Shown piece after piece: positions 4,370 to 61,292 of a stretch of DNA of 64,000 bases (its first letter is position 1; each line of letters opens with the position of its first letter). The translations under genes and the position numbers were made by a program. The notes under the pieces were generated by a model. That model worked only from the letters and a program-made list of their open reading frames with translations, was not told where the DNA came from and ran no database searches. This DNA comes from Pseudomonadales bacterium (GTDB lineage: Bacteria; Pseudomonadota; Gammaproteobacteria; Pseudomonadales; JAUIET01), in contig JBGCDE010000056.1 in NCBI GenBank assembly GCA_045105115.1, forward strand, positions 13,323 to 77,322, given 5' to 3'.

Positions 4370-4496
4370 GTCCGGCGCTGGACTGCCTATTAGCTAGCTG
4401 GACACGCCGTGAATCCATCCATGGAGTCTCATTTTCGACATCCATGTCTCAAACGGTCCAGCTAGCTAATAGGCAGCCCAGCACCTCAGTGCCAAT
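4370..4496 (-). repeat. Core-52 foldback element, copy A (subtype 1)
   Basis: Arms 4374-4403 and 4456-4485 pair over 30 bp; the two non-Watson-Crick positions are both G:U on the minus strand. The 52-nt core is 4404-4455 (acgccgtgaatccatccatggagtctcattttcgacatccatgtctcaaacg). It is flanked by gtccggc (4370-4376) and cctcagtgccaat (4484-4496). Confidence 0.85.
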
Positions 4497-4520: not shown

Positions 4521-4665
4521 GTTTCAGTATCGATTACCCCCTTTGCGAAGGTAAAAAACGCAGGCCGAGAGAACAAAAAAGACTTTCGCAGAAAGGCTTT
4601 TTTGAGAAAGAGGGAACCGCGGAGCGGCCCAGTTGCGCAGCAAAGGGGGTAATCGATACTGAAAC
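4521..4665. repeat. Long perfect inverted repeat (25/25 bp arms) enclosing a 95-nt insert; possible distant relative of the core-52 family
   Basis: 4521-4545 gtttcagtatcgattaccccctttg is the exact reverse complement of 4641-4665. The insert contains a terminator-like hairpin and gagaaagagggaacc, which resembles gaaaagagggacc in cores D and E. Confidence 0.8.
4575..4603 (+). terminator. Rho-independent terminator-like hairpin, symmetric (A-tract / stem / T-tract), inside the 4521-4665 palindrome
   Basis: aaaaaa-gactttc-gca-gaaaggc-tttttt. It lies downstream of the hslVU-DUF971 unit and upstream of ubiE. Confidence 0.45.
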
Positions 4666-20359: not shown

Positions 20360-20484
20360 GTCCGGCTTTAAATCGTGTATTGGCTAGCGAGACACGCCGT
20401 AAACCCATCCATGGGGGCTTGTGTTCGAGGTCCCTCTCTCACACAGTCTCGCTAACCAATACACGATTTAAATCCTCTGTGCTA
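20360..20484 (-). repeat. Core-52 foldback element, copy B (subtype 2)
   Basis: Arms 20367-20393 and 20446-20472 pair at 27 positions with one exception (C/A on plus = G:U on minus). Core 20394-20445 is acgccgtaaacccatccatgggggcttgtgttcgaggtccctctctcacaca. The gtccggc flank at 20360-20366 is identical to that of copy A. Confidence 0.85.
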
Positions 20485-20536
20485 TATCTCACCATCAGTT
20501 CGCCCAAATCTTTACGCGCTTTCAAAGCAAGTGCAT

Positions 20537-20665
20537 ATTGGCACTGAGGCTTCGGATTGAGTGTTTGACTGGCGGGACTGTTTGAGACAGGATGTCGAAA
20601 ATCAAGCCCCCATGGATGGGTCCACGGCGTGTCCCGACAGTCAAACACTCAAGTCGGAGCCGGTC
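20537..20665 (+). repeat. Core-52 foldback element, copy C (subtype 1)
   Basis: Arms 20548-20578 and 20631-20661 form a 31-bp stem with 2 G:U and 2 purine-purine mismatches. Core 20579-20630 is tgtttgagacaggatgtcgaaaatcaagcccccatggatgggtccacggcgt. The 5' flank attggcactgagg (20537-20549) is identical to the copy A flank. Confidence 0.85.
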
Positions 20666-20786
20666 CTGGACGCCAGATTTACACCACGGCTTCTGCCCAA
20701 CACATCGTAAACAAACGCTAAACACACCAAGGCACGCGAGTTTCCACCCTTTTGCGTTTATAATTTGGCCCGACCCCAAGAAATGC

Positions 20787-22364
20787 ATGGAGACACGCGT
20801 GCTTATTCTCAAACGATCACTCGCACTACTTGTTATCACCGGCCTGCTGGCAGCATGTGGTGTTAACCCTGTTACCGGCGACCGCGAAATACAGTGGATC
20901 TCTACCGCCCAGGAAATCGAAATTGGCAAGCAGAATTACCTGCCTGCTCGCCAGGTGCAAGGTGGCGATTATGTGGTTGATAAAGATATCTCACGCTACG
21001 TGTCAGGTGTGATGGAAAGAGTCGCGGAAGCGTCGGTGAAGGTGAATGCCGATCAAAACCGAAAACTGCCCTACGAAATTGAAGTAATCAATAGTTCGGT
21101 GCCCAATGCCTGGGCCATGCCTGGCGGCAAAATGGCGATTAACCGCGGTCTGTTAACTGAGTTAAACAGCGAAGCTGAGCTAGCCGCCGTACTGGGCCAT
21201 GAGCTAGTGCATGCCGCAGCAAGACACGGCGCAAAAGCGCAAGAACGCGGTATGTTGATGCAAGGTGGTTTACTTGCCACTCAAATCGCCGCCTCTGGCA
21301 GTCGTTACGGAAACTTGATTGCAGGTGGCGCCATGGTGAGCGCGCAATTGGTTAGCACTAAATACGGTAGAAGCGCTGAGCTGCAGTCCGATCTGTATGG
21401 TATGCGGTATATGGTGGAGGCAGGTTACAACCCACAGGCAGCCGTCGACTTACAGCAGACATTCGTGCGATTGTCAGAAGGGCGACAAACCAACTGGCTT
21501 GACGGTCTGTTTGCGTCTCACCCTCCTTCTGCAGAACGTGTGGCGCGAAACCGCGATACCGCAGCTGAACTCGGCGGCAGTGATTTGGAGTATGGTCGCG
21601 AAAAATACAAACGCGCTATTGCAAGTTTGATTCGGGACCAGGAAGCGTACGCCGCGCATGACGAGGCGCTTAAGGCCGCTGGTAAAGACAAAGACTTTAA
21701 AACGGCCAAAACTCTAGTAGCTAAAGCTATTCGGCTACAACCCAAAGAGCCAAAGTTTTATGGGCTGAAGGGTGATATTGCTATGAACGATAAGCATTTC
21801 AAAACCGCCGTTACAAATTACGACAAGGCGATCAATCTGTATCCGGAGTATTTCGCGTTTTACCTAAACAAAGGCTACGCCAAGCAAGAGCTGGGTGACA
21901 AAAGCGGCGCCAAACTGGCGTTTGAAAAAAGTAATTCGATAGTACCTACTCCCAACGCACAGAAAGCACTCGGCGATCTGGCCTTGGCTTCCGGCGACCA
22001 AAGTACGGCACTGAAATATTTCTCTTCAGCGGCGCGCTCAAATTCGCCGGTTGGTAAGCAAGCACTGTCATCAATGGCTCGTCTCGATTTGCCCCAAAAT
22101 CCAGATAAGTACATCAAGACCCGCCTGGCTCTCAACAATGACGGCAAAGTTATTGTTCAAGTACAAAACCAGGCACCTGTAGCTGTTAAGAACGTGCAAG
22201 TGATCACCGCGTATTTTGATGGCTCGGGCAATCAAGTGAGCCGTACCCAAACTTTGTCCGTGCGCGGAACGCTGGCGGCAGGAGCAGCCACCACTATCAC
22301 AACCAGAATTACTGAAGGTAATGGCTTGCGAGCGCAAGTCAGCAAAGCCACCGTTGCTGAGTAG
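20787..22364 (+). CDS. M48-family zinc metalloprotease lipoprotein with C-terminal TPR repeats (BepA/YfgC-like architecture)
   Basis: ATG 20787 gives the lipoprotein signal METRVLILKRSLALLVITGLLAACG. Zinc site AAVLGHELVHAAARHG, then TPR-like repeats (YYGLKGDIAMNDKHFKTAVTNYDKAINLYPEY). The ORF-track start at 20592 runs through repeat copy C and is rejected. Confidence 0.8.
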   Translation: METRVLILKRSLALLVITGLLAACGVNPVTGDREIQWISTAQEIEIGKQNYLPARQVQGGDYVVDKDISRYVSGVMERVAEASVKVNADQNRKLPYEIEVINSSVPNAWAMPGGKMAINRGLLTELNSEAELAAVLGHELVHAAARHGAKAQERGMLMQGGLLATQIAASGSRYGNLIAGGAMVSAQLVSTKYGRSAELQSDLYGMRYMVEAGYNPQAAVDLQQTFVRLSEGRQTNWLDGLFASHPPSAERVARNRDTAAELGGSDLEYGREKYKRAIASLIRDQEAYAAHDEALKAAGKDKDFKTAKTLVAKAIRLQPKEPKFYGLKGDIAMNDKHFKTAVTNYDKAINLYPEYFAFYLNKGYAKQELGDKSGAKLAFEKSNSIVPTPNAQKALGDLALASGDQSTALKYFSSAARSNSPVGKQALSSMARLDLPQNPDKYIKTRLALNNDGKVIVQVQNQAPVAVKNVQVITAYFDGSGNQVSRTQTLSVRGTLAAGAATTITTRITEGNGLRAQVSKATVAE

Positions 22365-27395: not shown

Positions 27396-27604
27396 GAATA
27401 TCTCCTTGTTGAGTGTCTACATAGCTTTAACGCAGCATATCCAAATAAGGGGTTAAGGGCCACGAAAAAACTCATTGCTCTTGGTCGGCCGCGTCTTGAT
27501 TTTCTGATCGAGAACGGTATTGCGTGCAGTACCTCAGTGCCACACCCAACTCTGTAAAAATTTGTAAAGTAGAAAAACTGAAATTTTAATGTGGCAGGTT
27601 TTAA

Positions 27605-27718
27605 GGCAGAGGTCGTTACCCCATGTGCCAGACTGTTGAAAAGAGGGACCTTTTCAACAAGCCCCCATGGATGGGTTTACGGCGTGTCTGGCACATGGGG
27701 TAACGGCCTCTGCCGAAC
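27605..27718 (+). repeat. Core-52 foldback element, copy D (subtype 2)
   Basis: Arms 27605-27633 and 27686-27714 form a 29-bp stem with a single T:G wobble at 27613/27706. Core 27634-27685 is tgttgaaaagagggaccttttcaacaagcccccatggatgggtttacggcgt. Confidence 0.9.
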
Positions 27719-51377: not shown

Positions 51378-51511
51378 GTCACTCTATAACACGAAGCACA
51401 ACCCTGCGCTCCTAGGTCCAAATTGCGGGCGCAATCTGTCGAAGAAGTTCTCATTATGACCCGAGAACACACCACACATAAAAAAGGCCTCTTGCGAGAC
51501 CTTTTGTATGT

Positions 51512-51553
51512 GTGGCGCGCCCTGAGAGATTGATTCGATCGGCCTAAGGGCCG
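51512..51553 (-). pseudogene. Internally deleted tRNA-Arg remnant
   Basis: It keeps the tRNA 3' end (tggcgcgccctgagagatt) and a 5'-end-like ctaagggc, but the anticodon, D and most T arm sequences are missing. Confidence 0.6.
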
Positions 51554-51654
51554 CTCTCACCCCTGCGGGGCGTAGTCGCTGCGCTTCTACGTCCAAATTG
51601 CTGACGCAATCTGTCGAAGGAGTTCTCATCATGACCCGAGAACACACCACACAT

Positions 51655-51680
51655 AAAAAAGGCCTCTTGCGAGACCTTTT
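51655..51680 (-). terminator. Rho-independent terminator downstream of tRNA-Arg (duplicated at 51479-51504)
   Basis: On the minus strand: aaaa-ggtctc-gcaa-gaggcc-tttttt. Confidence 0.7.
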
Positions 51681-51687
51681 GTATGTG

Positions 51688-51764
51688 TGGCGCGCCCTGA
51701 GAGATTCGAACTCCCGACCACCTGGTTCGAAGCCAGGTACTCTATCCAGCTGAGCTAAGGGCGC
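51688..51764 (-). tRNA. tRNA-Arg (anticodon UCG), CCA encoded
   Basis: Minus strand GCGCCCT-TA-GCTC-AGCTGGATA-GAGT-A-CCTGG-CTTCGAA-CCAGG-TGGTC-GGGAG-TTCGAAT-CTCTC-AGGGCGC-G-CCA. All four stems pair. The anticodon loop is CT-TCG-AA. Confidence 0.92.
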
Positions 51765-51788: not shown

Positions 51789-51847
51789 GCGCCCTGCTGG
51801 TTCGAAGCCAGGTACTCTCTCTTTACATTGAGCAGAGCTAAGGGCGC
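51789..51847 (-). pseudogene. tRNA-Arg-derived, T-arm-less tRNA-like remnant
   Basis: Minus strand GCGCCCT-TAGCTCTGCTCAATGTAAAGAGAGAGTA-CCTGG-CTTCGAA-CCAGC-AGGGCGC. The 7-bp acceptor stem and the anticodon arm (UCG) are intact, the D loop is replaced, and the variable and T arms are deleted. Confidence 0.6.
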
Positions 51848-61174: not shown

Positions 61175-61292
61175 TTGAGGCTGAATTAAACGCGCGGCGC
61201 CCGGAACTGTTGAAAAGAGGGACCTTTTCAACAAGCCCCCATGGATGGGTTCACGGCGTGTTCCGGGCGTCGCGTGTTTAATTCAGCCGGCG
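61175..61292 (+). repeat. Core-52 foldback element, copy E (subtype 2)
   Basis: Arms 61179-61207 and 61260-61288 form a 29-bp stem whose two exceptions are both G:T wobbles on the plus strand. Core 61208-61259 differs from core D at one base. Confidence 0.9.

Follow-up and report, generated by a model that had tools for sequence, protein, structure and literature searches.

The window analysed here (the whole 64-kb stretch of DNA) contains five copies of an intergenic foldback element, designated A to E, at the places and on the strands given in the original prediction. The pattern CCATGGATGGNTNNACGGCGTG, which represents the conserved 3' half of the element's core, occurs five times in the window against 0.01 occurrences expected by chance, and the count stays at five when three mismatches are permitted. 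A covariance model built from 48 family members (R1) and run over the whole window with filters off retrieved exactly five copies with scores of 85-113 bits, the rest being noise. No linked protein gene was apparent near the copies, consistent with what had been reported before, and their neighbours are unrelated housekeeping genes. All five copies are intergenic: the open reading frame 20592-22364, which overlaps copy C, is an over-extension, since the orthologous M48 peptidase comprises 521 aa and thus places the true start near 20799.

Copy D (27602-27717, plus strand, 113.3 bits with the covariance model) consists of a 5' arm at 27605-27633, a core at 27634-27685 and a 3' arm at 27686-27714, and is located 25 nt past the stop codon of a minus-strand luciferase-like gene, to which it is antisense. 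Its core folds into two hairpins, P2 with the loop AGGGAC and P3 with the loop AUGGAU, its arms pair over 29 bp including one U-G pair, and its minimum free energy amounts to -81.1 kcal/mol (z-score -11.9). The core of copy E (61176-61291, plus strand, 108.1 bits; arms at 61179-61207 and 61260-61288, core at 61208-61259) agrees with that of D at 51 of 52 positions. Copies B and C form a divergent doublet. The left member, B (20360-20485, minus strand, 105.8 bits), has arms at 20367-20393 and 20446-20472 around a core at 20394-20445. The right member, C (20538-20665, plus strand, 84.8 bits), comprises a 5' motif TTGGCACTGAGG at 20538-20549, a core at 20579-20630 and a 3' motif GCCGGTC at 20659-20665; its P2 stem contains tandem G-A pairs and carries the loop AGGAU. 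Copy A (4370-4495, minus strand, 101.5 bits; arms at 4374-4403 and 4456-4485, core at 4404-4455) is the only copy in the window with AUGGAU in both loops. Copies A, B, D and E are antisense to flanking genes, each lying 17-50 nt after the stop codon.

The core measures exactly 52 nt in all five copies, with a single difference between D and E. The arms form 27-31 bp, of which one to four positions per copy are not Watson-Crick, and they finish in RAC and resume with GTY throughout, all as described originally. The stem base GG(C/U), which had been regarded as constant, is present in four copies, and B has GGA instead. When the four core-proximal base pairs are left out, the arms of different copies are identical at only 5-13 of 26 positions; the arm sequences of the five copies are near-randomly different, and their complementarity is kept. 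Homology reaches a few bases past the arms in A, B and C, as the motif TTGGCACTGAGG on the 5' side and a GCCGGAC motif on the 3' side. A solo 5' flank motif, TGGCACTGAGG, is retained at 27532-27542 (minus strand), about 60 nt from the 5' end of D and in the opposite orientation. Judged from this motif, it is probably the remnant of a decayed doublet partner, so that D was probably once half of a doublet.

Single-sequence folds of all copies gave a three-way junction closed by a basal stem and bearing two hairpins, the loops of which read A-N-G-G-A-Y. The free energies range from -64 to -82 kcal/mol over the five copies, with z-scores of -5.2 to -11.9 relative to dinucleotide shuffles. All five window copies carry AUGGAU as loop 2. 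Loop 1 has this sequence in A only; B, D and E have AGGGAC there, and C has AGGAU. The two GGA triplets are 23 nt apart. Family-wide, loop 1 follows A-(U/G)-G-G-A-(U/C) with a nearly invariant GGA, and AUGGAU is found in most members.

The fold is supported by covariation. An ungapped alignment of 48 copies with a 52-nt core from many gammaproteobacterial genera (A2, 116 columns) had 95% of its cells in standard pairs, compared with 62% after shuffling and about 41% with slid partners. Both sides had changed in 36 of 44 pairs in these 48 copies, P2 contributing nine of its ten pairs, and RNAalifold returned the same three-way junction from them without a supplied structure. Tandem G-A/A-G pairs occupy columns 38:53 and 39:52 in six to eight sequences, including A, B and C. 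The claim that the core is conserved and that the arms keep their pairing, not their sequence, is correct and extends to the whole family, since 26 of 28 basal-stem pairs have changed on both sides. The basal stem of 27-31 bp is constrained for pairing alone.

A comparison of wobble pairs identified the strand on which the fold is selected. Stems were extended with a score blind to the type of mismatch, and transition mismatches were counted afterwards. G-U outnumbered A-C by 65 to 9 among 104 copies and by 41 to 1 (p = 2e-11) among 35 copies with arms less than 60% alike. Moreover, the AYGGAY strand was more stable than its reverse complement in 29 of the 35 copies, by 5.2 kcal/mol on average. 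The excess of G-U implies selection of the fold on the strand carrying AUGGAU: what is selected is a single strand that folds in the AYGGAY orientation. This asymmetry points to RNA rather than to single-stranded DNA of the AYGGAY strand, although single-stranded DNA tolerates G-T wobbles too and the asymmetry is therefore no strict proof of RNA.

The element had been put forward as belonging to no named Rfam family, which is wrong in substance: its architecture and the type of its loop motifs are those of TwoAYGGAY (RF01731), to which copy A and a locus of Cellvibrio (L034) give full-length sub-threshold matches. The claim of novelty falls with it, as the element matches a described family, the window copies doing so only below the Rfam gathering score. 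TwoAYGGAY was found in 2010 by comparative genomics in gut metagenomes, Gammaproteobacteria and Clostridiales (Weinberg et al., 2010; PMC2864571). Copy A aligned with model positions 1-168 at 36.3 bits (E = 1.5e-4) and the Cellvibrio locus full-length at 29.8 bits, both with permissive filters, the gathering threshold being 43 bits. No match of at least 43 bits was obtained in the window or in 18 related loci, and permissive filters gave no TwoAYGGAY match for D, B, C or a Stenotrophomonas doublet (L025). At Rfam gathering thresholds the window yields only a tRNA. The parts common to copy A and RF01731 in the alignment are the CAUGGAUG hairpin 1, the AG linker, the CCAUGGAUGG hairpin 2 and the ..UUYACGGCG.. 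3' junction.

The likeness is manifold. Both have a basal stem, a three-way junction and two consecutive hairpins with AYGGAY-type loops, together with the AG linker and ..UUYACGGCG. Both show tandem G-A pairs in one hairpin and a long, poorly conserved external stem, and both are gammaproteobacterial, multi-copy and often arranged in divergent doublets. Tandem G-A pairs in one stem of TwoAYGGAY and the poor conservation of its external stem were noted in 2015 (PMC4333381); the latter corresponds to the hypervariable arms of the original prediction. The window variant differs in its hairpin 2, which is shortened on the 5' side to leave a 5-nt UUYAC bulge, and in its loop 1, which is AGGGAC or AGGAU in four of the five copies. 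Unlike TwoAYGGAY of Pseudomonas, the window copies lack extra hairpins, a pseudoknot and 5' GMTBT repeat arrays, the last not being enriched near them (0-3 per 200 nt against a null of 1.4). Their arms are also far more variable than TwoAYGGAY of P. fluorescens SBW25, in which most positions are reported to be conserved. We are therefore highly confident that the five loci represent a TwoAYGGAY-type structured element. We assign them to a known family as a compact variant that scores below its threshold; they are neither strict Rfam members nor a new class.

A second Rfam entry touches the same element. Ysr224 (RF02770, gathering threshold 70 bits) is a Yersinia small RNA defined by RNA-seq, which owes its place among the most abundant "sRNAs" to being a repeat (PMC9029176). 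The minus strand of a Sodalis copy (L031, 7219-7334, plus strand) scored 82.9 bits with Ysr224, above the 70-bit cut-off; the reverse strand of copy A reached 16.2 bits, below that threshold, and Stenotrophomonas copies gave weak reverse-strand matches. Ysr224 is the same genomic element, but annotated opposite to the strand that has the wobble pairs and the GGA loops. RF01731 and RF02770 appear to describe opposite strands of one repeat. The search output places TwoAYGGAY in clan CL00106 and Ysr224 in no clan, and we found no published statement of a link between the two.

The spread of the compact variant was surveyed by an exact-pattern scan with one genome per species, which gave at least 118 loci. 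Genera among the loci listed are Stenotrophomonas, Xanthomonas, Luteimonas, Microbulbifer, Cellvibrio, Marinobacter, Rheinheimera, Haliea, Halioglobus, Pseudohongiella, Oceanisphaera, Zobellella and Sodalis, along with some Pseudomonas. All the loci listed share a variable complementary stem, a variable P2 and the nearly invariant segment ..AGCCCCCAUGGAUGGGUUYACGGCGU. The element was not found in the collections of plasmid, phage or E. coli genomes. Divergent, convergent and tandem doublets occurred in a ratio of 17:2:2 among the loci listed, with a median core-to-core distance of 260 bp, and the hit list of the covariance model contained more divergent pairs. A preprint of September 2026 describes TwoAYGGAY in Pseudomonas as multi-copy and mobile-element-like, with up to 202 copies per genome and with close pairs that are divergent in 68% of cases at a median spacing of 249 bp, the same multi-copy, divergent-doublet behaviour as in B/C (bioRxiv 10.64898/2026.09.22.753630). 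The doublet spacer of the Stenotrophomonas maltophilia locus L025 holds another long GC-rich hairpin of the GCCGACCGTTGGTCGGCAC type (225-336), which recalls the REP association reported for Pseudomonas.

Orthologous regions were located in related metagenome-assembled genomes with flanking proteins as probes. Relatives with a neighbouring protein of 78-95% identity had the loci of A, B/C and D either empty or reduced to remnants. At the site upstream of ubiE that is orthologous to that of copy A, L119-L123 have no copy or a degraded one; copy A is missing from this spacer in four relatives, among which L119 keeps the 3' half only. The B/C doublet is missing from the PAP2-M48 spacer of L124 and L128, which measures 154 and 207 nt, respectively, compared with 489 nt in the window. 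L124, L128 and L129 have no copy D; L124 and L127 carry partial element sequence at the D locus in sense orientation, i.e., opposite to that of D. Copies are gained, lost and decayed between close relatives. Model R1 misses a sub-variant that has a longer insert (..GCGAGTGCTTTGGGYCCGGCGKGTC..) in place of, or added to, the second AYGGAY hairpin. It is located at L119 9715-9830 (minus strand), L127 1-60 and L114 around 86-108, at loci orthologous to A and D in close relatives.

An ortholog of copy E occupies the same place and orientation in L130 (5211-5324). The 58-nt core block is identical at 56 of 58 positions between the two and the P2 hairpin at 26 of 26, and the 52-nt core differs at two positions. 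The arms are identical at only 11 of 29 positions (about 62% differ), each copy still being fully paired. Fourfold degenerate sites of an acyl-CoA dehydrogenase-family gene and of a radical-SAM (ygiQ-like) gene differ by 43% and 50%, respectively, between the window and L130. This implies a rate of change in the core of about one tenth of that at neutral sites, and the 52-nt core is under strong purifying selection at the sequence level. The arms drift at or above the neutral rate and nevertheless stay complementary. Moreover, where two copies share the 26-nt P2 exactly, their arm identity is often at random level.

On balance we favour, with moderate confidence, the reading that these elements are a compact variant of the dispersed gammaproteobacterial TwoAYGGAY repeat of about 115-130 nt, which folds on the AYGGAY strand and, as its likeliest function, would let a CsrA/RsmA dimer dock on a mobile-like repeat. 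The binding of CsrA itself, which we read from the loops, is suggested only tentatively. The consensus of a CsrA binding site is CANGGANG, and the loops with their closing pairs read CAUGGAUG, which fits this consensus in both hairpins. Known Csr/Rsm sponge RNAs (CsrB, CsrC, RsmX/Y/Z) are each encoded at a single locus, have terminators and promoters that depend on GacA, and contain 5-22 GGA sites. The elements described here resemble them in presenting GGA in hairpin loops that fit the consensus and in having two sites spaced so that one CsrA dimer could bridge them; they differ in having two sites only, a 30-bp clamp, no promoter that we could find, a dispersed occurrence and an unstable presence in the genome. 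The loops of TwoAYGGAY match the CsrA-site model of RMfam (PMC4333381), and binding of CsrA by TwoAYGGAY has already been proposed by others.

The RNA might thus offer a docking site for one CsrA/RsmA dimer, with one GGA hairpin per binding face, and the long stem would merely clamp the two hairpins together. Many dispersed copies could act as a distributed decoy or recruit CsrA locally, and the family would spread as a non-autonomous mobile element. RNase III may excise the module from longer transcripts via the 27-31-bp duplex, and such a release would explain why no promoter or terminator came to light. Neither a sigma-70-like promoter nor an intrinsic terminator was detected beside D or B/C on the AYGGAY strand, and no upstream motif is shared across 70 copies. 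The only transcript on record for this type of element, Ysr224 from Yersinia RNA-seq, is of the opposite strand (PMC9029176). The gene csrA itself is absent from the 64-kb window, which is uninformative.

The strongest rival is a purely selfish, non-autonomous mobile DNA of the REPIN/MITE type with no RNA function, whose single-stranded DNA hairpin would be seen on one strand by a transposase encoded elsewhere (e.g., of the HUH/RAYT type) and whose conserved loops would be the recognition sites of that transposase. We regard this as rather unlikely, though it accounts for several features: the dispersed, multi-copy occurrence, the presence, absence or remnant state at orthologous loci of close relatives, the strong excess of divergent doublets, the promoters and terminators not found beside D and B/C, and the bias of G-T pairs to one strand, which is also expected from a single-stranded DNA intermediate. 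The elements are indeed similar to RAYT-mobilised REP/REPIN sequences and to MITEs as short intergenic palindromic repeats right after stop codons, with no gene of their own, often in inverted doublets and with presence/absence polymorphism. The insertion polymorphism between related genomes typical of REPs and MITEs is seen at the loci of A, B/C and D. However, copy-and-paste elements normally leave near-identical copies. In REPINs and MITEs the arms or terminal repeats are conserved in sequence from copy to copy, whereas only the centre is kept here, and the distinction from ordinary REP and MITE repeats drawn in the original prediction stands: arms are not common to copies of the same genome (5-13 of 26 positions), and pairs with an identical P2 can have arms at random level. 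The GTAG-type 5' tetranucleotide of REP/REPIN is lacking, no consistent target-site duplication surrounds the window copies, no transposase is linked to any copy, and plasmids and phages gave no match. The two changes in 52 core positions over about 0.7 substitutions per neutral site look like a host-level or long-term functional constraint. A further point for mobility is that the Sodalis copy lies between 17-nt direct repeats (ATGAGTGAACTCATCTC; L031, 7174-7190 and 7356-7372). This repeat is a small palindrome that overlaps the stop codon of the upstream gene and may represent a duplicated hairpin target site; nothing comparable was noticed next to the window copies.

A different account concerns the arms. 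Their complementarity might be kept by copy correction at the DNA level (quasi-palindrome template switching), so that RNA selection would not be its sole cause. One arm would template the other, a mutation would be copied to the partner, and the stem would change in blocks, as fast as neutral sites or faster, without losing its pairing. Three findings are compatible with such a correction from arm to arm. The copy in L130 shares the core of E and has unrelated yet perfectly paired arms, the divergence of the arms equals or exceeds that of fourfold degenerate sites, and in close Stenotrophomonas copies compensated double changes (107) exceed single changes (69), the double changes clustering in a block of 3-4 bp beside the conserved top of the stem. 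The element would then be a self-maintaining palindromic carrier of a strongly conserved 52-nt regulator-binding cassette, a mobile CsrA decoy spread through much of Gammaproteobacteria. We consider this account speculative and assign it a low probability.

The docking-site reading has a weaker rival than the selfish DNA hairpin in the proposal that the reverse strand is the relevant molecule, forming a 3'-end hairpin in read-through transcripts, a REP-like stabiliser of mRNA or a small RNA from the 3'-UTR such as Ysr224. As A, B, D and E lie antisense 17-50 nt after stop codons, read-through transcripts would carry the reverse complement, and Ysr224 was detected by Yersinia RNA-seq on this strand, to which the Sodalis copy matches at 82.9 bits (PMC9029176). 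Between co-directional genes, a rough and noisy survey of the loci listed counted 28 antisense against 12 sense copies, and since the open-frame heuristic applied to the at least 118 loci is noisy, this antisense bias is a weak trend only. The wobble pairs, however, favour the other strand by 41 to 1, 29 of 35 copies fold less well as the reverse complement, and the conserved GGA loops would turn into UCC. The Sodalis copy and C are sense to the upstream gene, and no T-tract follows the hairpin in either orientation. A function of the reverse strand therefore appears improbable to us.

The reading implicit in the original prediction, an unnamed family with hypervariable arms as guide, spacer or address sequences on a constant scaffold, draws on arms that are unrelated between copies with identical P2, even between orthologous copies, but it is most improbable and arms as guides or spacers are essentially excluded, given that the arms have only chance matches (up to 13 nt) elsewhere in the window and none in phages, plasmids or E. 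coli genomes, that both arm strands are buried in a perfect duplex, that their divergence is about that of neutral drift at this evolutionary distance, and that the family is already described.

Several other candidates were considered and rejected. Self-cleaving ribozymes and retron RNA have no Rfam support, and neither has attC. Integron attC sites are comparable in that one folded strand is recognised by its structure and the paired parts are little conserved in sequence; however, attC has conserved R/L boxes at the ends and a variable centre, and the layout is reversed here, with a conserved centre, variable arms, no integrase or gene cassettes, and housekeeping neighbours. A sigma-54 promoter was dismissed as well, as the TGGCAC-type 5' motif comes without a -12 GC at the right spacing in most copies and has no Rfam support. 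An origin of the arms from the insertion site by inverted duplication does not agree with the empty sites in L124, L121 and L123, which are unlike the arms.

TwoAYGGAY is a structured RNA known since 2010 and now known to be very abundant in Pseudomonadota. Its compact subfamily in Xanthomonadales, Cellvibrio, Microbulbifer, Marinobacter and Rheinheimera is missed by the Rfam threshold, so that the family is under-counted by current annotation, with the opposite strand sometimes labelled Ysr224. A specialist would recognise the motif at once; what this analysis adds is covariation, strand, constraint at orthologous loci and turnover. The wobble-pair test settles which strand folds, the comparison of orthologous loci reveals a 52-nt core under strong sequence selection next to arms that are free to change, and the turnover between close relatives indicates that copies are gained and lost quickly. 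If the idea of a CsrA decoy, which others proposed earlier, were true, a mobile repeat would modulate a global regulator.

Two further repeats were observed in the window. Beside copy A lies a perfect 26-nt inverted repeat (GTTTCAGTATCGATTACCCCCTTTGC at 4521-4546 and GCAAAGGGGGTAATCGATACTGAAAC at 4640-4665) with 93 nt between its arms. Within this interval lies a hairpin resembling a terminator (about 4577-4605). L119 and L120 share the right arm, which is native sequence from upstream of ubiE, and have neither the left arm nor the interval, so that the repeat looks like a recent inverted duplication. The second is a 128-nt direct repeat (51404-51531 and 51579-51706, 95% identical, 175-nt spacing), the second copy of which enters the 3' end of a tRNA-Arg(TCG) gene at 51688-51764 (minus strand). 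Just upstream there is a 32-nt partial copy of the body of this tRNA (51715-51746 and 51790-51821), and the arrangement looks like the scar of an element integrated into the tRNA gene, or a local duplication.
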